The position numbers and the translations under genes were made by a program. A DNA stretch of 64,000 nt. Source: Schmidtea polychroa (taxonomy: Eukaryota). Location: positions 17,300,001-17,364,000 of the forward strand of contig CM097885.1 of assembly GCA_044892525.1 (NCBI GenBank), in the 5' to 3' direction. The notes beneath the pieces are model-generated. The model searched no databases, was not told the origin of the DNA, and saw only the letters and a program-made list of their open reading frames with translations. Each line of letters opens with the position of its first letter. Within the stretch, counting starts at the first letter, position 1. Positions 149 through 44,431 of this stretch are shown here, piece after piece.

Positions 149-595
149 ATGACTTCATTATTATTGAGCAACATTAATTATAAAGATAAGTGTTTAGTCA
201 AAAACATGAAATTCCCATTAGGTAAACCCCAACAAGTTGTGGATAGAAGTGGGATGTATCCAATTATATTTTTCAAGTTGGGTAGATGTCGGATAATGGG
301 ATGCAAGCAACCTCTTAAATTAGTTGATTTGAAATATAAGATACAAGATTTACAAATTCAGTCCATTACAGTAACTGCTGATATCGAAAAATTTATAAAT
401 TTATACGAATTACAACATAAAACTAAATGTGTGTTTGATCCAGAAATATTTCCCGCCTTACGTCTTCAAAAATATAATCCAGTTTGTGTTAATGTATTTT
501 CAAGCGGGAAGGTTTTATTACATAGAATAAAAACTTTAGAATATAATCACTATGTAGAGAACATTATCTCAGAAATTAAAATGTTAATTAATTAA
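149..595 (+). CDS. Divergent, minimal TATA-binding-protein-like protein (148 aa, intronless)
   Basis: C-terminal half QIQSITVTADIEKFINL...FDPEIFPAL...VNVFSSGKVLL matches TBP repeat 2 (KIQNMVGSCDVKFPIRL...YEPELFPGL...LIFVSGKVVL). IIFFKLGRCRIMGCK resembles the end of a shortened repeat 1. Confidence 0.75.
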   Translation: MTSLLLSNINYKDKCLVKNMKFPLGKPQQVVDRSGMYPIIFFKLGRCRIMGCKQPLKLVDLKYKIQDLQIQSITVTADIEKFINLYELQHKTKCVFDPEIFPALRLQKYNPVCVNVFSSGKVLLHRIKTLEYNHYVENIISEIKMLIN

Positions 596-637: not shown

Positions 638-1024
638 ATGTCAAAAGGTAAAGAATATATTTTTATTTATAATTAATAATCTTTATATCTAGTTTACTTA
701 TTTGAAGTAATTTTAAAGAAGTTTCAAGAATTATACCCAGGAATAAGAAATACCATAGATTATTGTGCACCAGAGTTACTTATAAATAAAATATTTCGCT
801 TAACAGGTATTAATATAGAACAACTTTTAGAGTTGCACTACGTTATGGTTCTGAGGTCTGACACTAGATGCATTGAAAATTGTATTGTTTGCAAAGATTC
901 TATGAGATTGTCATGCCCCAATGGGTGTCCATGCTGTCACGACTTTAAAAGGGATCAATCAGTTCATATCTTATTAGCTGAAATGCGTAAAGCATACTAC
1001 ACAGATGTATTTAACTTGAAATAA
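638..1024 (+). CDS. Small Cys-rich hypothetical protein (~113 aa); exons 638-647, 693-1024
   Basis: ATG TCA AAA G|gtaaag...atctag|TT TAC: a 45-nt GT-AG intron puts the ATG in frame with ORF 833-1024. C-terminal cluster CIENCIVC...CPNGCPCCH; AATAAA overlaps the stop codon. Confidence 0.55.
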
Positions 1025-1657: not shown

Positions 1658-3116
1658 AATGAAATTTTTCAGATGTTTGAAGTAACGAAGATTCCGTATT
1701 TTAATATCCTCAGTATAGATTTTGATTTTGGAAACAAATGCTTTCCATATCTCATAAAGCTCCATAACCGTTTGTCCAACACCTTGCAGATGTAAATTAA
1801 ACTCGCCGAGGTGAGCTATAAAACATAAGTTTTATAAGCCACTGTGTGTCTTCAAGTTCGGAATATCTTCCAGATTTTTCTTCCAAAAAGACTTTGATTG
1901 AGTCGAAGCATCCAACAAACCTTTCCAGAACTTTACCGCAACTTAGCCATCCAACGTTGCGGTGAAGAGGTATGTGCTGATATGCACTCTCCATCTCTTG
2001 AAGTAAAGCTTCGAACTGTCTTTTTGTTAGAGAAGAGCGTACCACAAGAAAATTTACAATTTTAGATACGGTAGACATAACATTGTTAAGATCGGTTTTT
2101 GAAATCTTTGCACAAATACTCTCTTGGTGAATAATACAATGAAACTTTAAAATGGGGTGGCTAATCTTTTCTTCAAGTAAATTGACGAATCCATTTAGCC
2201 TACCTACCATGGCAGGAGCACCATCTGTCATAACAGCAAATATCTTGATGTCAATTCTTCTTTCTTCAAAATGATCGATAAACGTTTTTAAAATATCTTT
2301 TCCCGTTGTATTACCATGCATAGATTCGTGACAACATAACTCCTCACGCATTTCAGTATCACTGTGTCTAGTTACAATTGCCAAACGTGGTATCCCGTTT
2401 ATATCAACACTCTCATCAATTGCTACATTCAGGACGCTAGCATTCCTTAACGCATCAGTGTGCTGTTCTTTTATATTCTGAACCATTTCTGTAATGCGTC
2501 TCTCAACCGTCCTAGCAGAAGTAGGTATTTCTTTTATCCTTGAAATACTTATGTTTTTATTGGGAAGATGATCAAACAGCACCTCAGAGCACTTGAGGAA
2601 AATCTCTTTAATATAACCACCGCTTTCCAAAATTTGCAATACACTGTGAGATTTTGTAGCTAGCTTCAGTTGCTTGATTTTTTCTACCGATCATGTTTAC
2701 AAAAACGTTTGTTTGCTTCTCATAGCGAGCCACATCATTTTTAATAGATTCATTTTTTTCTGCCTCACACTTAAAGGATCCTTTGTGTTTTGTTTCAAAG
2801 TGACGCTTTACTTGACGTTCTAACTACAACAGTTTCGATTATTTTTTAAAATAAACCCGTAATCTGTTGTCCAAGAAGACTGAAATTGGCGAATATCAAA
2901 CTTCATTTTTTTGGAATACGCCATAATGGGTATTTAAATAATAAAACAAGTTTAATATTTGAGTAAATAATTATGGCAGTAAAAATGAAATTAACTAAAC
3001 TTATTTACTATTTAATGATTAAATTTCTTTATCATTATTTTTTTCATTATTAGTAAATTTAATAAATCACTTCGAGTGCCAAGTTTGGCACGCGTGCCGT
3101 AGGTTGCCGACCCCTG
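1658..3116 (-). mobile_element. hAT (Charlie-type, GTF2IRD2/EPM2AIP1-like) transposon, frameshifted and 3'-truncated
   Basis: Terminus CAGGGGTCGGCAACC on the minus strand at 3116. ORF 1797-2639 has AIDESVD, MTDGAPAMVG, HCIIHQE and GWLSCGKVLERF motifs. Reading frame is broken at both ends. Confidence 0.85.
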
Positions 3117-3267: not shown

Positions 3268-4842
3268 ATGAAAAATTACAATCTATTCTTCGTCACATTT
3301 TCTTTAATTATTATCTGTGTTTTTTATACTGTATGGAGAATAAATACGGTATATCTAAATGCTCAGAATTCAACGAGAATATCTCCGAACATTTCACTAA
3401 AGTTGACGACAAAAATCAATAATAAGGAAACTTATTTTCACAGAAGAATGTCAAATTCTCAAGTCTTTGAGATGTTGGAATTGCTTCAAGTTTTCATAAC
3501 TTTATTGGATAGATCTAATATAACATACATCGCATACGGAGGAACTCTTATTGGTATCTATCGACACCACGGGCTGATCCCTTGGGATGATGATATTGGT
3601 AAATTTTACCATTTTTATTCATTTATCATTTTGATTAATAATTTTCATTATAAAAATTAATAAAGATAAAATAAATGTGTTGGGTATTTTGTGTAAGTCG
3701 AGTAGGTAGTTAGTGGCTTACGGCAGCAATAGGGGGGGGTAAAAAATGTTGCAAACTTTTGATTGCATAACTTTTTCCGTAGACATTTTTTGATTACATA
3801 ATTGTTGCCGTAATGCCCAATGTTTTCTGGGATTTTAAATACAAAATTTTTTTTTTTTTTTTTTTCAATAAACAAGCCAAGGATAAATATTATTTGGGTG
3901 GGTCTCCTTGGTCCTGAGAATTTCAATAGAAAAAGGTAGTCTTCAATAAAAAAGCATGGATTTTTCACACTATAGTGAGGGGATCTTCTTGGTCATGAGA
4001 ATTTCAATAGAAAAGGTGGTTTACATTAAAAAACGCATAGTAAATTTTTAAAATAAAGCAAATTATGGGTCTAAAATTTAAAAATAAAGTAAATGATGGG
4101 TCTAAAAATTTAAGTAAATCAAGGTTCAGATTTATTTTTGAAATAAAGTAAATTATGGTCTAAATAAGTAAATTATGGGCTAAGATTTTTCAATTAAAGT
4201 AAATAATGGTTCTAAAAAATTAAATTACAGTAAATTATGGTCCAAATTTTTAAATTAAAGTAAATTATGGTTCTTAAAAATTAAATTAAAGTAAATTATG
4301 GTCAAAATTTTTGAATTACAGTCCAAAAATTTAAATTAAAGTAAATTATGATCCAAATTTTTAAATTAAAGTAAATAATGGTTCTAAAAAATTAAATTAA
4401 AGTAAATAATGGTCCAAATATTTTAAATTACAGTAAATAATGGTTCTAAAAATTAAATTACAGTAAATAATGGTCAAAAATTTTAAAATTAAAGTAAATT
4501 ATGGTTCTAAAAATTAAATTAAAGTTAATTAAGGTCCAAATTTTAAAATTAAATAATCAATGGTAAAAAAAATTTAAATTAAAGTTAAATAAGTAAATTA
4601 AAGTAATAATTTTTAAATAAGTAAATTAAAGTAATGTAATAAGTAAATTAAAGTAAGATTTTTAAATTTATTAACAAAAATAGAAGGTGTTTGAGAATTG
4701 AAATTTTTTAATGGAAATTTTAATGAATTATTTTTTAAGTAATTTTTAATAGAAATTTTTATGAATAATTTTCAATGGTAATTTTTAATGGAAATTTTAA
4801 TAGAATAATTTTTAAGATAATTTTTAATGAAAATTTTTATGA

Positions 4843-4886
<44 letters not shown>

Positions 4887-7800
4887 TAATATTAATAATA
4901 TATCAACCAAATACTATACAACACATAAAAAATTAACTAAACACATAAAAATAACTAGACACATAACAAAACATATAAACATTAACTAAACACATAAAAA
5001 TGAACTAGACACATAACAAACATAAAAATTTACCAAATAACAAATGTAAAGATATAAAATTTATTCAATAAAATTAGTCCTCATCGGACAAAATAACGTC
5101 ATCGATATCGATGTCATCTTCTCCAAAATCTTCATTTAATTCTTCCTCATCTTCTCCATCATTTTCTCCAACATTTTCTGAAACATTTTCTGCAACAATT
5201 TCTCCAACATTTTCTCCAATATTTAATTCACTTAATCTTACATGCCCATATGCAAGACTAGTATTTTTCCCCACCAAAACCCTTTTGTCATCTTTGTTAG
5301 TTAGTGCTATTTTTGTGTTTTTAATTGTAAAAATTTGATGATTTTTGCTTGTTATTTTAGTCTGAGGAACCGAAAAAATCTGGTTAGTGTTATAACAATC
5401 CAGGTATGACTGATGTTTTATGTCACTACCTTTCAATGTTACACCTTTAGCCTTTTTTGTTTCCTCATCACCCAACAAGCTATAACATTTAGGTCTAAGA
5501 AAAACCCACTCCTTATATTTAAGACCTTTATTCTCGTCTTTGAACTTTCCAATGACTGAATCAAGGTTCTTACTATATAAGGAATGACAACTATTGTAAT
5601 TGGAAGTATCCAATAAATTATCTCGAACCATTGCAGGTAAAAGAACCTCAAGTTTGCAGTTAATGACTTCGAGGAAAAAAGAATCTGTATCACCTGCAAC
5701 GATATTAATTTTACAATTAAACTCATTGCGAAATGATTCCAGATCCTTATATTGCAATTCATACATTCTAAGTTTAGATAGATCAAGTACAGATTGACCA
5801 ATGTAACTCGGTCTATCTAAACATATAGAATCGGAATTCAATAGTGCTGCAATTAAATTATCTGCTATTTTAATAGATTTTTTAAAAGTCGGTTTTGACG
5901 AATATTTAACTAATTTACCGGCAGTTGTACAAAGACGAAGATTCATTCTTCTCTTTAAATTTTCAACTGTTTTGCCGTATAAACTATTATTTAGCAATTT
6001 ATAATAATTTTTATCTAAGCTATTTACGCTTTTTGATCTTAATTCGGTATTTGTATCTATATATATTTTAAAAATTGGTGATTGCTTAAATCTTACACCC
6101 CTATTTACACGTGTTACTTTAACACCAAGTTCCAAATATAATTTTAATAATCTCCAATGAATAACATAATTAGATTTTGGAAGATGAGTTAATAATAATT
6201 TTTCAACCTTAGACCCAGCAGGTTTCATTTTTTCAGCAGCTACAGGGAAATCATCCAACTTATCATGAAGCTCAGAAGGAATTACAAGATCAACTTCAAG
6301 TGTGTATCCATAAGACAAAGATTCAAGATTTAAATTCCTACATTCATCCATTATTTTATCAAATCCATCAAGAACCCAACAAAATTCGCCACAAGGTAAT
6401 GATTGACTTAAAGCCCAGCCATAAAGATTATTAATATCTATATATAGTAACTCGGTGTTCTCGTCGGTTTTTACGTAATGCTTATTCACAAAAGTAAGAC
6501 CGCCTCTTATTCCACCCTCATAAAAGCTAAACATTTCGTTTTCCGTTATGAGTTCAATTGGTTCATTTAAAGACATTAATGCAGAAGACCAAGACATGCC
6601 TGGAATTCCGAAATAATTCAATGGTTCCAATCTATTGTGAGCAATGGATTTCAACCGAAACTGATGAAAGAAATCAGCCAAAAGAAAACAATCAAGTTTT
6701 AGGTAGATCATCATATAATCTAATAAAGTTACGCAATTAGTTTCTACCCAAATCTCCTGAGCTTTTTCATACTCAAGCTCAGTGACACCCTCCCAGATTG
6801 GTGGTAATTCATAAGTAGTTTGGAGAATATCTAAAGAAGTGGCGAAATTATAAGGGAAGATTCCTTTTTCACTTACTATGGTGCCAGAAAAAGCAGAATT
6901 AGTAAAAGGCAAAGAATTCAAAGTTTTGACTGCTTTAGCCAAAGAATCATTGACAAATTGATACGAATCAATGAATCTTAGGCTAATTTTACCTAAATGA
7001 GCAATCAAAGATATAAATTTTTCCGTAGTTATTGGGATGCACCCTAAATTCCAATTTTTAAATTTATTTAATCCATATTTAAGTATATGGTGCATATCGT
7101 ATCCCTTCAAGTTGTGAAATACGATAGGCAAAATTTTATTTATTTTTCTATTTACGTTACATGTGCTACAAGCTGCACCCAAGTATTTCCCCGTAAAATG
7201 ATCGTGATCTCTAACAGGATCCACGATAGATTTCAAACAAAGATAACAAACCGTTGAATTAATGAATTGTTGTTGCTCAATTTTCGTTAATTTAATCATT
7301 GGTTTCCTACCCATTTTATAATAAAAAGGAAGAACCTTATTTAATGCTATATCCTCTATAGCACTTAAAAAACTCTCGACGCAATCTAAACCTATAAACT
7401 GCTGATAAGATTTAGATCCGTCAAAGTTATTTACTAGTAAAAGACCAGCAGATATTGGCATGTGTCGCTGAAAATGATCATTATCAGAAGGTAAAATAGC
7501 CTCAAAATCGGCATAAACTACAAAAGGAGGAGTTACTGTTTTCGACCAGTCAGTAAACTGTAAGAATTTATTTTGAGGGAAAGTATAAAGAGTTGTTCCT
7601 AATTGATTACGTTTGCATAATATTTCATGTTTTTCTAGTGCGTTTCTATTATTAAACCCATTCAAACACCGATGGCACCATAATGAACGTATGCGTGTAG
7701 GACAAGTAGTGTTGATACCACAATTCAATAACCTATTTAAATTGCTTATAGCAACGTAATGGAAATTGTTCCCTTTATTTAATAATAGTAAATTAATTAC

Positions 7801-10800
7801 AGTTCCATTTAAAACTTTGGAACGATGTATAATGTCTAAATGTGGGTGTTTTAAAACGTAATTATCTATTAATTGTTTGTTATTGTCATAAGAAAAAACG
7901 TTAATTATTAAACCAGGATTTTTGGCCTCGAATTTTCTAATATCTTTTAATTTCATGGGTAAGTCCAATGGATTATATATTAATTCAGATAAATTATAAC
8001 TGGATGTCCTATTTCTAGCATAACTACTAACCTCATCATATTTTAAAATAGCTAAAATGCTATATAAAAAACATGAATCATCGGTGTTTTTTATATTAAT
8101 TAAACAATATTTATTTTTTAGATAAGTAGGTAGTTCAATGAAACTCCTACCACTTAATCTACTTAGCCTACTTATCTTTGTTATGGTGAAGTGAATTTCT
8201 GTTATTTTTTTTTATGATCCAGCTACTTCCTAACTCTGTGATATTACTTATTTTCTCGTTTAGTTCCCTAATGCCTTCGTCAAAAAATGAGGCAGTTAAA
8301 GGTTTTGCGTAATTCGAAATATTATTAACCTTTATTTCCCCATCTTTTTCAAATTCGATTGTTATTCCGAATTGAATTTTGACGGAGCCTAATTCGTTAA
8401 TAATATCTCGTAATTTTATAATTAATTGTTCAGGAAATATTATTTCCTTTATATTTAAGTCGCTAGTATTTAAACTTAATATTTGATGGGTACCCCTTAG
8501 ATCTTTTTGTATTATGGGAACATTACCCCCTATTTGTATTATATTTAATCCATCCCAAGAATCAAAGGAATTGAATAATCCATCATTGGATTCAACAAAA
8601 GACAATCCAGCCTGGGATTCAACCTCTAATCCGACCTGGGATTCAAAAGAAGAAGTATCTAATTTAATTTTTTTATTTGTATTATTTTTTTCTATAGTTG
8701 ATGGTCTTTTAAAAACACTATCTTTTTTAAAATTAAACCTATCTAAATGATGTTTATGTTTATTATAAAAAACGCTATATGTTACAGGGTTACTAGTCTT
8801 ACATACGGGACATATAAAATATGTTTTATTATAATATTTTTTCGTGTAATAATTCTCCATTATAGAATGGCAATTATTATCATGTTCTTTCGATGAACAA
8901 TAATTTGGATAAAGTATACCTATAAAATAAAAATTTAATAAAAAAATATATATATATATATAATTTAAATGAAATATTTTAATAAATGTTTACGCATAAA
9001 TTTACAAATTTTATTTACTAAAAAAATAAAAATTTACTAAATTAAAAATATTAACATTTAATTAAATAAAAAATTATATTAAATTTCCTTTAAATTATAT
9101 AAAAAAGTAATCAATACTTACATTGTAAATTTTCATTTCGATTTATTGACACATTGACATAATTTTTCTCTTTATTCGTATTACCTAAATTATTAATTAA
9201 TTAAATCAATAAATAAAAAATTATGTTTACTTTTTCTTTTCAAATTTCCTTTAATCTTCGATTTTAAATTGTCTTCATTAATATTATCTAAATTAATTAA
9301 TAAATTAATTAATAAATTAATTAATAAATAAATTAAAATTTACCAAATTCCTGAATTTTTCCTCGAACATTCATAACGTTTTCTATTAAAGAATTCATTT
9401 TTAAAGGTTAACTATTTGTTAAATGTGACTAATAATTGATATTGTTTATAGATTATTATTGTTTATAGATTATTATTGTTTATAGGAACAAATTCTAACC
9501 AATCAAAATCAAGGAAGGGTAGGGAAAAATATATTACGTTGCGGTATTTTAAAATTAAAATTTATTTTAAAAACACATTTTGACGTTAAAGTCGAGTTAT
9601 GTAACAAAGACATAATAAACTTATTATTTACTACAAATATTTCACCTATCAAATACCTAACTAGAGATGCTATATATTGATTGTTCATAAAAGCCAACTT
9701 AATCATAAATTTCTGTATATTATTTTGTAAATTATTTCTGTAAATTAAATTTTGTATATTATTTCTGTAAATTATCAAGTAAATTTAAAGTTCTTGATAA
9801 GGTTAACTGGTTTCTTAGCTTATGTTTTTTTTAAAAAGTTCATCAATGTGTAAATATTCTTAGAAAATTATTGAAAAAAAAATATTTAGTCAAATGCATT
9901 ACAAAGTCATCTAAAATTAAACCAATTACTTAATTATTAACATAACAGTCATTAAAAAAAAATTAATTTTTATTTAAAATTTAACAAATTATCAAGAAAT
10001 TCAATTAAAATCATCATTAAAACTTTAAATTTTTTAATAAATCAACATGAAATTCTTAGAAATATGAAAAAAAAATATTATTACAAAGTTATATCCTATC
10101 ACATGATTATTAACCTGACTGTCATTAAAATAATTTTTATTTAAAAAAAAAACCAATCAATTAAAATGCATCCAATTATCAAGAAATTAATTAAATTTAT
10201 TTAGAACTAACTTAAAATTTTTAAATATTCATTCAATCCACATGAAATTCACGAAAATGATAAAAATTCACAAAAACCATCAACTCTAAAAAAAATAATT
10301 ACTAATGAATACCTTAAACACCAAAATTTATCTAAATAATCTTTCAAATTAATTCATTAAAATTGAAGACAACACGCTCTATTTTGTCATTACATTCAAT
10401 TAAAATTAAATAAATCAAGATAAGAACTTTGATAAAAAATATTATTCTAAAATGGTAAAAATTAACACTGTAGTGTTAAATGAAAAGGTAATTATTCTTT
10501 AAATCTAATTAACTTAGTCATAATTTTCTTTAATTTAACTCTTTATTTACTTAATTTAGTCCTTGTTTACCGAAAATAGAAGTTTAAAATATAGACCATT
10601 GATTACTTTAATTTAAAAATGTATCCCTTAATTTACATAATTTCAATCTAAAATTATTTCAAAAAATTTTTTCTAAAATTTTCATTGAAAAATATTTCAT
10701 AAAAATTTTCATTAAAAATTTTCATTGAAAAATATTTCATAAAAATTTTCATTAAAAAATTTCAATTCTCAAACACCTTCTATTATTTTGTTAATAAATT

Positions 10801-17684: not shown

Positions 17685-19955
17685 TAAAACAATAAAATGA
17701 TAATTTAAGCCTTTTGCTGCAAATAATGTATTTAATGAAAAAGTTTTCGACTATACGATAGTCCTTGTCAATCTCCTGGAATTTAGCAATGTTCTTCCCC
17801 AAAATACCTTTCAATCTTTCTTTTATTTCTTTTCTCTTAATTCTCATTGGTTGTAAATATAATGAATTGTTTTACTAAAAACTTTTAAAATTTTTACATT
17901 TAAAATTGGTGTAAAAAAAAAAAAATTCTGATCTTCCTAACTTCTACCACCTAATTAAAACTCACAAAGAGGGTCCTGGTATCAAAATTAGACCTATAGT
18001 GTCCAACAAAAATGAACCAACAACTAAAACAAGTTGGCTCCTTGCAAAGATCTTGAAACCTTTATTGGACACGATACCACACCATCTTCAAAGCAGCGAC
18101 TGCCTCATGACAAGACTAAATAATAACATGACTTGTCATAGAGAATTCCAATACCCATTTAGTCTTGATGTCGTATCACTATACACATCTATCGAACCAA
18201 CAGAGGCTATTCAATGTTTAGAAAAGAAATTAAGAGAAAGCAACTTGTTAATAAAGGAAATGAATATCGAGAATATCACCAAACTACTTACTGTTATCCT
18301 CGAGAACACCTATTTTACCTTTGAACAAAATATCTATAAACAAGTTAAAGGTCTGCCTATGGGTTCTAGCATATCAGGACTGCTAGCAATCATCTTTATA
18401 GATAACCTCGAACGACAGACACTGAGGACCATACAACCCATCGGTTTCTATGCAAGATATGTAGATGATATCTTCACCACGACCAAAAACAGAAAAGAAG
18501 CGGAGGAAATATTTCATACATTCAATGCGGCTCATCAAGATATTAAGTTCGAAATCGAATATCCGGAAGAAGATGGATCCCTCAATTTATTGGATTTGAG
18601 AATCAAAATAGAAGAAAATACTCCAACATACGGGTTCTACAGAAAACCAGCTCGCAAAGAAATATTTATGCACCAAAGATCAGCGCTTCCATACTTCAGA
18701 AAGTACATGTCATAAGAAACGAGAAACGAAGAATAGCCAATCGATGCACGGAGAAAAACGAAAACTTTAAAGAGCAATCAAATTTCAATAAAATCCTACA
18801 CCGAAACGGATACCAAGGTGAGGACATTGAAAGAATGAATTCTACCCCAAGAAGATCTAGGGAATTAACACAAAAGAATCAGAAATATTTCTATCTGAAT
18901 ATCCCATTCATCAGTGACATACTCGACTTCAAGATCCTGAAAGAACTTAAACGTACCGGTCTTCCAATTCGGATAGCACATAAATCTTGGACATTGAGAA
19001 GGGCTCTGGCAGGCAACATAAATAGAGAAAACAATTGCACAATGAAAAACTGGCAGGCAACATAAATAGAGAAAACAATTGCACAATGAAAAACTGCCAG
19101 ACACCGAAAGATATGTGCTTTAGAAAAAACATCGTCTATTGCATCACGTGCAATGTATGCAATGAAATCTACATTGGAAGTACCCTCAGGACCTTGCACC
19201 AAAGAGTTAAAGAACATCTAGATCCTGGTGGAACATCCTCGTTGGGCAGACATCTCCGGCAGTGTCAACCAACAGAGGAAAGAAAAAATATTTCAATAGA
19301 AATCATAGCTAATGGAAACATCCAAAAGAAAAATGTCAGAATCAAAGAAGCAATTCTCATCATAAACAGACAGCCAAAGATCAACACTAAAGAAGAAATC
19401 AATGAAATCATGAATTTGATCTGTTGTCATTGACTTTGAGAATAACTGACAATATATAAAGAAATTAAAAAAAATAGAATAAATTAAAAAGTAATAATTA
19501 GAATAATATAGAAAACAATTTTAAAAAATAGGGTTTCAAAATCAAAATTGACACATTTATTGAAATATTTAAATAGCATATATAAGTAGTTATTGGATGC
19601 TTTATTTAAAATATTTTCAAATATTTTATTAGGCTTCTAGCTAATTATAGAAGCTGTAAAAAATTTAAAAATTTTTAGTTTGTGTCATTTTGAAATTTTA
19701 AATGTAAAAATTTTAAAAGTTTTTAGTAAAACAATTCATTATATTTACAACCAATGAGAATTAAGAGAAAAGAAATAAAAGAAAGATTGAAAGGTATTTT
19801 GGGGAAGAACATTGCTAAATTCCAGGAGATTGACAAGGACTATCGTATAGTCGAAAATTCTTTCATTAAATACATTATTTGCAGCAAAAGGCTTAAATTA
19901 TCATTTTATTGTTTTAAATAATAAATGCTGCTACCAAGCAATCATCATTTTATAC

Positions 19956-39700: not shown

Positions 39701-42700
39701 AAAACACGAGGAACTCTATTGCATACATTTCGTCAATGGGGTTGTAAAGGAAGAAAATCGGAATGACAGAACAGAGAGAATGAGGTATGCGACATCAGAT
39801 GGAAGAGAATGGAGCAAGATGAAAATAAATGATGTTGAGATTGAGATGTTGTGGAATTCTGGAGCTTCAATTACAGTGATGAATGAGGAAACATGGCATA
39901 AAATTGGCAGTCCACGTTTAAGCAGCAGTGAAATCAAAATATGTGGAGTTTTTCCAGGAACTCAAAGACCACAGGGATGTACAGAAGTAAATGTTTATTG
40001 GCACAATAAGATGAGGACTATCAAAATAATTGTTATTAAAAATATATTTCCAGGTTTTATTGGTGGAATAGATACTTTGAAAGCATTAGGAGTGCAGTTG
40101 ATGGAAATTAACAATATCGAATCCGAAACAAAGATTAGCAATTATACTGATGACGAGAGAAGACAAAAAGCAAAAAGGGAATTGGGAAGAAATGAATTGC
40201 CAACAATTAACAAATTATTAGATGGATTCGGGTCAATATTTATGGCAGCCAGATTTGATTTAGGATTCACAAGAATCGTAGAGCACGAAATTAATACATC
40301 TGGGAATCCAACAATGCAATTTCCAAGACGACAACCGATGCATCTAGAACAGAAAATTGACGATATGATAAAAGAGTTAACAAAAGCTGGAGTTATAAGA
40401 CGATGTAAAAGTCCATGGAGCTCTCCATTGGTTGTAGTAGGAAAGAAAGACGGCTCAATTAGAGTGTGCGTAGATTATCGAGAGTTGAATAAGATGACAG
40501 AAAGAGAATCTTTTCCTATGCCCAACATATCCCAATTACTCGATAACCTATCAGGATCTAAATTCTTTTCTTCTTTAGATCTTGAACAAGCATACTATCA
40601 GGTTGCATTAGCAGAAGATGCACAAGAAAAAACGGCTTTTAGTTCCAAAGAAGGTCAATTTTGTTTCAATCGACTTCTATTTGGATTATCAACGGCTCCA
40701 GCAACATTTCAGCGATTAATGCACACGATGTTAGAGGGTATCTTGTTTAATGGAGCAATTGTTTATTTAGACGATATTCTGGTATATGGCAAGGACCAGT
40801 CTGAACATGATGAGCGATTGCGAGAAGTTTTCAAAAGAATAAAAAAACAGGACTAAGAATAAATCCGGAGAAGTGCGAAATTTACAAAACCAAATTAAAA
40901 TTCCTTGGCCACACCGTCAGTGAAGATGGAATACAGACAAATTCAGAGAAGATCAAGTCAATTACAGAAGCGACGAAACCACAGTGTGCTAAACAACTTC
41001 GATCTTTTCTAGGTTTGACAAATTACTATAGACGATTTGTCAAAGATTATGCTAAAATAGCAGCACCCCTACATGCAGCAGCGTCAAGTTGTGATAAAAC
41101 AATCGAATGGTCAGAAAATTGTGAAAACAGTTTTAAAAAACTTAAAGAAGCCTTAACACAAGCACCTATTCTTGATTTTCCTCGTATAGATCCAACTATT
41201 AAGTATTGTTTTGAAAATTGTCCATTCGTCTTTCTTTGTGATTGCAGTTAAAGAAATCAGTTTGCTAAAACGGTCCACCATTACTACTATATATTTTTTT
41301 ATGGCGTTCATTTCCATGTAAGCCACATCCATAACAATCTGTTCTAGGAATTCAGAGCTATATCTAGGAATAAATGTTTCCTTGGTTCTTGTCTGATCGA
41401 TTTTTCTCTTAGCGCAGATCTCGCAACATCGTAAACAGAGTTCGATTGTTTCTTGCATTTTCGCCCAATAAAATATCTTTTCCGTATAATGAAATAATTT
41501 CTTAACTCCAATGTGACAGTTCTTCACGTAGGGTTGTTGTTAACAGGCTTGCAAATGTTTCTGGGACTAACATTAAGATATTTTTGTTCTTTTCTACTGT
41601 TATTAATCCTCCATCAATTCGTGTATTTTTTACGTTAAAAGGAAAGCAATTCTTTTTCTCCCGTGTACATCCATTTTCCAATATCTCTCGCAGCTCTCGA
41701 AACTGAATGTCCTTTTGTTGTTGTTCCCATACTTTTTCCATAGCTTCTGTTCTTTGGATAGTATATATATCTAATCTTTGATTTTCCTTCCTTAGCTTCT
41801 TCATGTCTTGTTTGACACTGGGTGCAAATCATACTTTTTAATCTTGATAGTCCATCTGCATTCGAGTGTTCTTCGCCTTTCCGATATTTTAGTTCAAAAT
41901 CATATTCCGACAGGTTAGCTAACCATGTTTGGAACTGCGGATTGATTGGCTTTTTTGTAGTGTTCATGAAAACTAGTGCTTTGTGGTCAGTGCGAATTAT
42001 GAATTTTTTTCCGTACAGATATTCTCTAAAATGCATGACGTATTCATGTACGGCGAGGAATTCTTTCCTGGTTACACAGTATCCATTTTCATGTGATGAC
42101 ATGTATCTTGAGCCGTAAGCTATGACAGATTTTTCTTCATCTTCTGTAATTTGACTCAAATCTGCACCAATGGCTCCGAAACTAGCGTCTGTGTCTAGGA
42201 TAAAAGTCCTATCTTCTCTTGGAAAATCAAGGATAGGTGCTTCGCACAAACGTCTCTTCAGAGTTTGGAAGCTCTCATTGAATTCTTTAGTCCAATTTAT
42301 ATCTTTATCGCATCCAGATGTTGCAGCGTATAATGGTTCGGCGATTTTGGCATAGTCTTTGATGAATCTTCTATAGTAGTTTGTTAATCCGAGAAACGAT
42401 CTCAATTGTTTTGAACATTTTGGTACTTCTGCTTTCCCGATCTCGTCCACCTTCTTCCTATTTGTCTGGATACCCTTCTCGTTAACTGTGTGACCAAGGA
42501 AACACAATTCTGTTTTTTTGAATTTGCATTTTCTGGATTTATCTTCAGTCCTGCCATTTGAATTCTTCTGAATATTTTCCTTAATAGCTCATCGTGGTCT
42601 TTTTGACTTTTACCATATACCAAGATATCATCTAGATAAACTATTAATCCCTTGAATAGCATTCGTTCTAGCACTGTGTGCATTAGTCTCTGGAATGTCG

Positions 42701-44431
42701 CAGGGGCTGTTGCTAAGCCAAGTGGTAGTTCACTGAAGCAAAATTGTCCTACTCTTTTACTGAATGCAGTCATTTCTTGAATTTCTGGAGCCAATTCCAC
42801 TTGATAATACGCCTGACCTAAGTCGATTGACGAAAATATTTTTGCATTCGTGAGACAGTCTAGTAAGAATTTGGTGTTAGGCATCGGAAATGACTCTTTC
42901 TGTTATGGAATTCAATCCACGATAATCTACACACATCCTTCTTCATGGATATTGTTGGCAGCTTCCTTTCTGAGCCATTCGGGATTCTCGCATTTCTCAA
43001 GAATTGTTCTCTTGGAGATTGTTCTCGACGACCATGGTTATTTCCTTCGTATTGTATTGGTCCACTTATAGGATGTTCGTCTCTTCCTGATCTGTGGTGA
43101 CTAAATGACTCTTCTGATAGTCTTCTTTGTGGTGATGTAGTTATGGGATCTTGGTTATTCTTTTGAATTCTCATTTGCTCTCCCTCAGTCACGCTAGCGT
43201 ATGTTCTTTGACTGATTGCTTTTATAAATTCCATTTTATTGTTTTCATTTTTGTTACTTTCAAAAATTTTCGCCAATGATCTCGTTTCTTCAATTTTTGT
43301 TTCTGGTTTTGTCAATAGTATCTCCCGCAGTCTCGCATCGCGTGCTTTATTTGCGATGAAGTCTTTGAATAATATCTTCTGATCGTCCTGAATTTACAAC
43401 TTCAGCTAAAGCTTTCCTTAGCCGTATCTCAAAAGCTGCAAACCTTTCATCATCTTCCTATTCCATAGCTGCCAATTCTTTTATTTTATCAGTTATTGAT
43501 TTTGTAATTGTGAACGTATGTAAGAACCACGCTTTGGCTTTTGCATCTGTTGTTTCTGTTTCTCTGACGTTTCCCCACAATGTCTTTGCTTCTGCCACTA
43601 ATAACACATCGAAAGTGCTTTTCAATCGTTGTCTATTTGTAAGCAGCCATTCTTCTATATCACTGATCCATTCTTCGGCTTCTTTTAAACCTCGTCCATC
43701 ATATAGTCTGATGTTCAGTGTGAGCATATATTGGCATGATTTCGGTAGGCATTCCATTAGCGATTTTGTCGATTTCGAAATGGCGTTGATATTTTGATTT
43801 TCGGCGTTGTCGCCAGTTAAATCCATCTTTAAATCCATTTTTAAATTTCTCAGCAAAAGTCTTGAACTCAACAATATATATTTAATCAAAAGGATTTATA
43901 AATAAAAAGTTTTTAATTTTTTACAAAAACCGCCAACTCCAATTATTAAAACAACAAGATATCTAACTATTATAATTACTCAATGATTGAATGTGATCTT
44001 TAGAGGTATTATATCAGTGTACTTTGGAATTTTATAAACATCATTTAAAAATTTCTAAACTAGATTGATAATATCAAGTCAAATTTCTTTTTTACTCTGC
44101 CATCTTTTCATCATTATTATTAGCACTTAAAATATAAGATATTTTTTATACCTTTCCATTGTGTACTTTTAAAATATATATTCATAAAGCCAATATTGTA
44201 AACTTTTACATTTTTCGATGAATAATCTTTTAGGAAATGCTTCTCTATAATCCTCCGGATAGAATTAATTCTAGAGATGCATTGTTGCATTCATATTTTG
44301 CTAATTTGAATAGAAGTCAGTTACCTGCTCATGGAGAAGAACATAGGGCATCTCCGTTTGAAGCTCCTCATAAATCAAAATTTAATTCAGTCAAAGAAAA
44401 TAATTTTATGGACACTCCAACAATTAAATAG
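30721..44431 (+). CDS. cdk1: Cyclin-dependent kinase 1; exons 30721-30790, 30837-30993, 31053-31344, 31387-31695, 44234-44431
   Basis: [44 protein letters not shown] and GDSEIDQ; all introns GT-AG and in frame; last intron 12.5 kb. Confidence 0.92.
32020..33900. repeat. Minisatellite array with higher-order structure
   Basis: ~40-50 bp monomers with core GTGATGTAATCATTTATA; 693-bp (32211 vs 32904) and 240-bp (33541 vs 33781) higher-order periods. Confidence 0.9.
33967..36924 (-). mobile_element. hAT (Blackjack-like) transposon, degenerate
   Basis: TIR TAGCGTGA(A/C)CA, 8-bp TSD GCTATATC/GTTATATC; fragments [35 protein letters not shown]. Confidence 0.82.
35008..35934. mobile_element. 927-bp TGTT...AACA insertion (solo LTR-like)
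   Basis: 4-bp TSD TAAG; removing it restores the transposase sequence [14 protein letters not shown]. Confidence 0.75.
38551..41188 (+). mobile_element. Ty3/Gypsy retrotransposon fragment: gag (zinc knuckles), protease, RT; frameshifted
   Basis: CFCCGE knuckle, [10 protein letters not shown] (protease D>N), [13 protein letters not shown]; ends at APILDFP. Confidence 0.9.
41189..43840 (-). mobile_element. Related Ty3/Gypsy fragment in opposite orientation: gag, RT, RNase H, partial integrase
   Basis: Gag start LTGDNAEN parallels [24 protein letters not shown]...[12 protein letters not shown]; protease region deleted near 42950. Confidence 0.9.

Follow-up and report, generated by a model that had tools for sequence, protein, structure and literature searches.

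A short TATA-binding protein gene of Polinton elements in Schmidtea polychroa and its proposed link to a TATAAAC late-promoter box

A small gene encoding a protein with the TATA-binding protein (TBP) fold is found at positions 149-595 of the forward strand in a 64,000 nt stretch of the Schmidtea polychroa genome, hereafter the window (G000:C1:17300001-17364000 of the 781 Mb genome). The evidence supports this being a fixed gene of a Polinton/Maverick. In the reading we favour, to which we assign a probability of roughly two in three, the short TBP would be a specificity-shifted transcription factor, encoded by the element and directing expression of the element's own late genes.

The short TBP gene and the Polinton that carries it

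The 148 codon frame is open and intronless, as first described, and residues 68-129, corresponding to the clear second TBP repeat of the preliminary description, match the Pfam TBP family (PF00352) over one repeat with an E value of 3.9e-10 (39.9 bits; cut-off 22.9). Each of the 27 PDB sequence matches is a TBP or TBP fusion. The fold was further assessed by profile comparison and structural prediction, as had been suggested: against nine two-repeat TBPs, 140 columns spanning both repeats were aligned with a probability of 99.3, while an AlphaFold model built from a 20-sequence alignment (mean pLDDT 92.3) matched TBP in Foldseek (best E 4.6e-9) and superposed on human TBP in VIA-align with a Z score of 12.8 and rmsd of 2.8 across 148 aligned residues, the first non-TBP row in that list having a Z score of 7.1. 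In agreement with the shortened first repeat noted at the outset, residues 1-84 of the model are without any helix of at least four residues. Based on the Pfam match, the model superposition and the profile comparison, both lobes are present and lobe 1 has no helices; the predicted structure is a two-lobed TBP saddle, with a complete C-lobe and an N-lobe lacking its two helices.

The gene is arranged head-to-head with that of an A32-like packaging ATPase, the 5' end of which occupies positions 1-59 on the minus strand (ATG at 59-57; Pox_A32 E 8e-7 on a sister copy), with the remainder upstream of the window. Continuing upstream on the minus strand are the pX-bearing PW gene, an rve integrase, putative minor capsid, core and major capsid genes, a protease and pPolB; hence the carrier is Polinton-like, as had been claimed, and includes the pPolB and putative capsid genes that were to be sought there. 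The DNA_pol_B_2, rve and Pox_A32 domains all exceed the Pfam cut-offs in a sister copy, to which the window copy has colinear matches of 93-97%. A double-jelly-roll-like match to the sister's putative capsid falls below the cut-off (E 0.003), and Pfam detects neither its putative minor capsid nor its protease; a homologue of this protease in another element (L169) matches Peptidase_C5 (E 1e-7). The capsid labels are our assumption from position and size. On the other side of the TBP gene lies a Cys-rich ORF (638-1024, forward strand), probably spliced through a GT..AG intron predicted at 648-692, which belongs to families from the same genome only, having no match in Pfam and none in the Atlas at 0.9 or above.

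The element ends in a right terminal inverted repeat (TIR) at positions 1034-1657, containing two sub-repeats (1188-1298 and 1548-1657) that are 87% alike. Its end at 1657, reading ...CACTACT, is 1062 nt beyond the TBP stop codon, consistent with the terminus originally placed about 1 kb from the frame. The family has AGTAGT..ACTACT ends, with TIRs finishing ...CTTCTCACTACT; the form ...TTGTCACTACT is a variant of the window copy only. Sister copies have long TIRs, of approximately 1.2 kb in one case, and when both ends were checked in 16 of them, the 6 bp target site duplication (TSD) predicted for such an element was perfect in 11, two of which share flanks; in the other five, the outer left end is absent from the stretch fetched. 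These features, together with pPolB, rve integrase, A32 ATPase, protease, two putative capsid genes and the pX-bearing PW gene, are shared with Polintons/Mavericks (adintoviruses). Scans of viral contigs using the TBP alignment, the ATPase, the capsid and the ATPase alignment as queries found no relatives. In run X7, presumed to be RNA, which covers the late-gene side of the element but leaves out the TBP gene, the poly(T) ends at L001 29, 53 and 656 correspond to short genomic T runs.

Beyond the Polinton terminus, the larger part of a hAT-type DNA transposon extends over positions 1658-3116 on the minus strand, ending in a CAGGGGTCGGCAACC TIR; this was the target of the Polinton insertion. 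A search for the rest of the hAT located the other arm at G000:C1:17282918-17283126 and 17292528-17292612, placing the transposon's TIRs at C1:17282918 and window position 3116, with 8 bp flanks that agree at seven of eight positions. The transposase portion has no Pfam match, and its motifs are presumably hAT/Buster-like. As three of the four hAT-like sister copies read are continuous across the 1657/1658 point, the Polinton junction cuts the transposase where it had been reported to. The matching left TIR end expected upstream is missing from the window copy, because most of the left TIR was deleted, together with around 470 bp of the hAT.

The window copy also has deletions or stops in pPolB and the capsid gene. 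Its TBP frame has 11 positions at which it departs from at least 27 of the 29 sisters, and comparison with seven sisters gives a dN of about 0.033 and a dS of 0.054-0.093. To judge from these changes, the copy looks like a decayed, aged and neutrally drifting remnant, and is probably inactive.

Other repeats are found nearby. The same hAT contains a further insertion of about 9.4 kb (G000:C1:17283127-17292527; L031/L032) with Polinton-like inverted ends (...CCCACTACT). A second Polinton fragment, at window positions 5074-8860 on the minus strand, has an open 960 aa pPolB frame and a 230 aa Cys-rich ORF, and shares about 67% nucleotide identity with two TBP-bearing families. The window additionally includes a LicD-family exon (3268-3660) and retroelement fragments encoding reverse transcriptase, GIY-YIG and RNase H domains (18107-19433 and 39780-43838).

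Distribution, phylogeny and selection

In a protein search of its own genome with the ORF, 150 of 4,088 candidates were scored and all 150 matched, with identities falling mainly in bands near 89-93%, 62-64% and 57-59%. Homologue searches returned 23 and 283 matches, and 154 of the 172 proteins that were classified are a better fit to the short family than to two-repeat TBPs; these 154 are the representatives of the family at the 50% clustering level. Among 54 metagenome loci with the TBP, 25 also have one or more Polinton genes next to it, and the others are contigs of 1-5 kb. The gene order varies, such that the TBP is found either ahead of the ATPase or behind the protease. Such a distribution indicates a gene family spread widely among Polintons, as opposed to a single capture. 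In many metagenome loci, the TBP gene is adjoined by a conserved ORF of about 160 aa (for instance, L067:5843-6352 and L169:10736-11212), a single cluster of which covers 16 loci; it has no Pfam match, and possesses an acidic N-terminal motif that we take to be exonuclease-like in appearance.

The relationship to host TBPs, which the preliminary description had proposed examining, was addressed with unrooted trees. In a 62-row tree that included 29 hand-picked database members of the family, 33 short TBPs are set apart on a branch with support of 100/99, the other side consisting of 11 eukaryotic TBPs, 13 other two-repeat proteins and five host TBP-like sequences. The short-TBP clade is likewise separate in a second tree (SH-aLRT 99). 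On the topology of these trees, the short TBP is not derived from host TBPs. The host's own TBP exon shares 82-87% identity with animal TBPs. Six TBP-like loci are present in the host (L126-L131), of which four are 34-41% identical to canonical TBP and two are apparently intronless.

A comparison of dN/dS across copies, also proposed initially, gave values of 0.07-0.09 between the first and second own-genome subfamilies, where dS is saturated, and 0.15-0.24 between the second and third. The median was 0.22 in 56 metagenome pairs with dS of 0.1-1.5. From the analysis, 15 of 98 loci that were partial or contained stops had been dropped. One partial TBP copy has a ratio of 0.81. Among 29 sister copies pN/pS is 0.12, a value biased low since these are the best-scoring copies. 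By these ratios, the short TBP is under purifying selection between lineages.

Viral TBPs are already known, and the short Polinton TBP is a variant of them, not a new category. Giant DNA viruses encode proteins with the TBP fold, including structural matches in BFVD with E values down to 7e-8, the matched proteins being 186-840 aa long and 9-16% identical to the short TBP. TBPs are also mentioned in the available text on mirusvirus-like algal elements (PMC10675990). In the available text of Starrett et al. 2021 (PMC8502044) and its preprint, 'TBP' is mentioned in figure legends only, being listed for some MELD virus or related element; the available text of the paper describes no TBP gene, short form, spread or late promoter, and the label is absent from the extracted text of the animal adintovirus maps. 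Nothing relevant was found in the available text of PMC12220804. A literature search whose scope lay outside subscription journals and Repbase found no account of a Polinton short-TBP family or of a TATAAAC promoter.

A TATAAAC box upstream of putative late genes and a remodelled DNA face

Two different promoter-like motifs lie between the divergent TBP and ATPase genes. On the minus strand, a TATAAAC box at positions 90-96, starting 37 nt 5' of the ATPase ATG, is a candidate late promoter on the basis of its sequence and its conservation in relatives. On the forward strand, upstream of the TBP ATG, a canonical TATA-like stretch, TATAAGTATATAAAAA, at positions 115-130 is a candidate early promoter for the host TBP.

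The box was sought within -80 to -10 of the ATG in sets of related genes, with near-duplicates removed and start codons called automatically. It precedes 12 of 14 ATPase genes, nine of nine PW genes, eight of ten major capsid protein (MCP) genes and three of five protease genes, the starts of the last being uncertain; it is weakly represented ahead of core genes (one of eight) and minor capsid genes (two of nine). Shuffled sequences gave means of 0.1-0.4 and the reverse complement was found in none of the same sets; the sequences being related, these counts are not independent. The box mostly starts 32-39 nt before the ATPase or PW ATG and 32-45 nt before the ATG overall. Upstream of the TBP gene itself, TATAAAC is present in one of 35 sequences and a canonical TATA in 22 of 35 (shuffled mean 8.2, maximum 14). 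Many of these regions have TCA(T/C)T, which we take to resemble the invertebrate initiator, about 28-30 nt past the TATA box, a spacing that would therefore imply very short 5' UTRs.

Across ten late-gene blocks (50.7 kb), TATAAAC occurs 59 times in the sense and five times in the antisense orientation, relative to nine of each in the background (window positions 9001-64000). TATAAAG is similarly sense-biased (16:1), and some copies of TATAAAC lie in coding sequence, such as that specifying Y-K-Q at the ATPase C-terminus, so that protein constraint may have raised the count. At the level of motif counts, it is shown that the ATPase, PW and major capsid genes carry a sense-strand TATAAAC, as the protease gene probably does.

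The box is retained across elements with ATPases 56-85% identical. Four extra loci (L169-L172) were found by the ATPase alone: L169 has a short TBP and a TATAAAC strand ratio of 11:0, the nearest box in its ATPase leader being about 96 nt upstream, while ratios of 2:2 were found both in L170, a partial contig with no TBP seen, and in L171, which has a full-length TBP; L172 is uninformative. In the same genome, a Polinton family without a TBP has TATAAAC at none of 25 ORF starts, counted in overlapping stretches from two elements. These negative controls are few: a single TBP-less family, whose virion module is different, a single element with a full-length TBP, and a single partial contig. The TBP-less family (L155-L157) includes one copy with a PLA2-like domain before the integrase, and the start codons of its ORFs mostly follow A-rich sequence (...AAA|ATG, often TAAA|ATG), which to us resembles the poxvirus late TAAATG. 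The TBP of L171 (11568-12122, minus strand) is a two-repeat protein of 185 aa with a largely canonical DNA face, in a more distant Polinton (ATPase 38% identical), and may represent either the ancestral state or an independent capture.

Compared with cellular TBP and TRF proteins (PF00352), the short TBP shares the saddle across all 148 residues; however, it is about 30 aa shorter, 20-24% identical, and in this sub-clade has lost the N-lobe helices. Residue frequencies were calculated from 110 full-length members (median length 160 aa), with yeast numbers assigned by alignment to canonical TBP, the end points of which fit the PDB matches. The list of DNA-contact residues was taken from Table 1 of PMC12529657. 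Giving yeast residues first, those kept are N69 (N8, 92%), F116 (F42, 99%), F190 (F101, 99%), P191 (P102, 89%) and F207 (F117, 100%), and the stirrup remains acidic (E-P-E), with position 97 acidic in 95% of members and E99 present in 98%. Three of the four intercalating Phe are retained (99-100%), as is one of the two canonical DNA-contacting Asn, N159 being replaced by S72 in 82% (Ser/Thr at this position). The fourth Phe, F99, is a Pro (P27) in 95% of members, a change that might lessen DNA bending. Polar or charged residues are found in place of V71 (N10, 79%), V122 (R48, 99%), V161 (T74, 81%), I194 (R105, 76%) and L205 (N115, 100%), and further replacements affect T124 (M50, 100%) and V203 (C113, 77%). 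R48, M50 and N115, on the DNA-facing strands, are each conserved in 99-100% of the 110 members.

The I194, V203 and L205 positions are those of the altered-specificity mutant TBPm3, whose mutation shifts TATA specificity, and the N-lobe of TBP reads the 3' half of the TATA box, where C is disfavoured, according to the available text of PMC1636458. Counting against the reading we favour, changes at these three positions would be predicted to act on the 5' half of the box, and TATAAAC is canonical in that half. The lobe-1 helix sequence is still present in deeper branches of the family, which suggests that the shortening of the N-lobe was gradual.

Proposed function of the short TBP

Under the late-factor reading, the TBP gene would be transcribed early by the host TBP and RNA polymerase II (Pol II), the latter being assumed on the grounds that no gene for an RNA polymerase was seen in the Polinton stretches read. 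The short TBP would then bind TATAAAC, with its remodelled N-lobe reading the C-containing 3' half, and the conserved acidic stirrup of the C-lobe would recruit host TFIIB and Pol II. TFIIA, Mot1/BTAF1 and Brf1 dock at the N-lobe of TBP, and loss of the N-lobe helices may free the short TBP from such host partners. No viral TFIIB partner was found, as the TFIIB matches in the genome are host genes and intronless arrays, with no Polinton gene block in the three 10 kb stretches read; nor was a conserved partner gene found for the short TBP. TFIIB-like genes that are divergent, have no introns and are 301-310 codons long number at least 13 in the genome and are clustered at G000:C3:38.2-39.1 Mb and C1:23.8-24.2 Mb (L152, L153, L165, L166), and no Polinton gene block surrounds these clusters in two 10 kb stretches read.

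A similar combination of viral TBP and variant late TATA box is found in beta- and gammaherpesviruses, where KSHV ORF24 and EBV BcRF1 act on TATT late promoters (PMC12529657). In the available text of that source, ORF24 has a polar DNA face, including polar substitutions at the same V122, V161 and L205 positions, and is a 752 aa multidomain protein of a six-protein complex that has four Phe and is missing the acidic TFIIB residues, whereas the short TBP is a bare 148 aa domain in which those residues are kept. The multidomain architecture, loss of acidic TFIIB residues and six-member complex of the herpesvirus vTBPs (ORF24/BcRF1/UL87) are accordingly not features of the short TBP. By analogy, our best reading is that the protein would work like ORF24 yet be TFIIB-compatible, with no claim of common origin.

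An unlikely alternative is that a host factor, either a Forkhead protein or a divergent TBP paralogue, binds TATAAAC(A), leaving the viral TBP to serve other promoters or replication. ATAAACA fits what we take to be the Forkhead site consensus, and the six TBP-like loci of the host, four of them so divergent from canonical TBP, would provide candidate paralogues; against this, the one-strand orientation and fixed spacing of the box suit a core-promoter element better than an enhancer site, and it is kept across diverged TBP-bearing elements but absent from the other Polinton family in the same host. The preliminary description had allowed for either a dedicated promoter-recognition factor or a TBP decoy, and the strand-specific box that precedes several packaging and virion genes favours the former. 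The decoy is the less likely of the two: it would titrate TFIIB or NC2, or sit on TATA boxes, conceivably dampening host or its own early transcription, with TATAAAC being read by something else. An acidic stirrup retained on a protein with a reduced N-lobe and one intercalating Phe lost would suit such a dominant negative, although a mere sink would have no need of new DNA-face residues conserved at 99-100%, and a box of set position and strand is found in elements that have the short TBP and not in those that lack it. Passive carriage of a decayed host TBP retrocopy, to which the intronless, short frame, the dN and dS of the window copy and the ratio of the one partial copy might have pointed, is refuted by the position of the clade in the tree, apart from every one of the five host TBP-like sequences there, by the 154-member family and by the between-lineage purifying selection, and with the gene being multi-copy, the single-copy host gene also originally considered does not describe it either.

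Extending the late-factor reading, we think it fairly probable, albeit less so than that reading itself, that a wide clade of Polintons possesses a one-protein early-to-late switch, in which a minimal TBP, trimmed stepwise from a full-length viral TBP, co-evolved with TATAAAC and steers host TFIIB and Pol II to the virion genes. The series cited for this trimming runs from the full-length TBP of L171, through the deep branches in which the helix is kept, to the window family in which it is lost.

To our knowledge, the timing of capsid gene expression in Polintons, and whether those of animals have a real virion phase, are largely open questions. The short TBP and its candidate late box offer a direct handle on them, as start sites can be predicted from the box and short oligonucleotides would suffice to assay the protein. 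If the proposal is correct, this would be a very small natural TBP of shifted specificity, revealing which parts of the TBP surface Pol II initiation can do without, and would constitute a natural orthogonal TBP-promoter pair, convergent with that of the herpesviruses, and a sign of a regulated virion phase.
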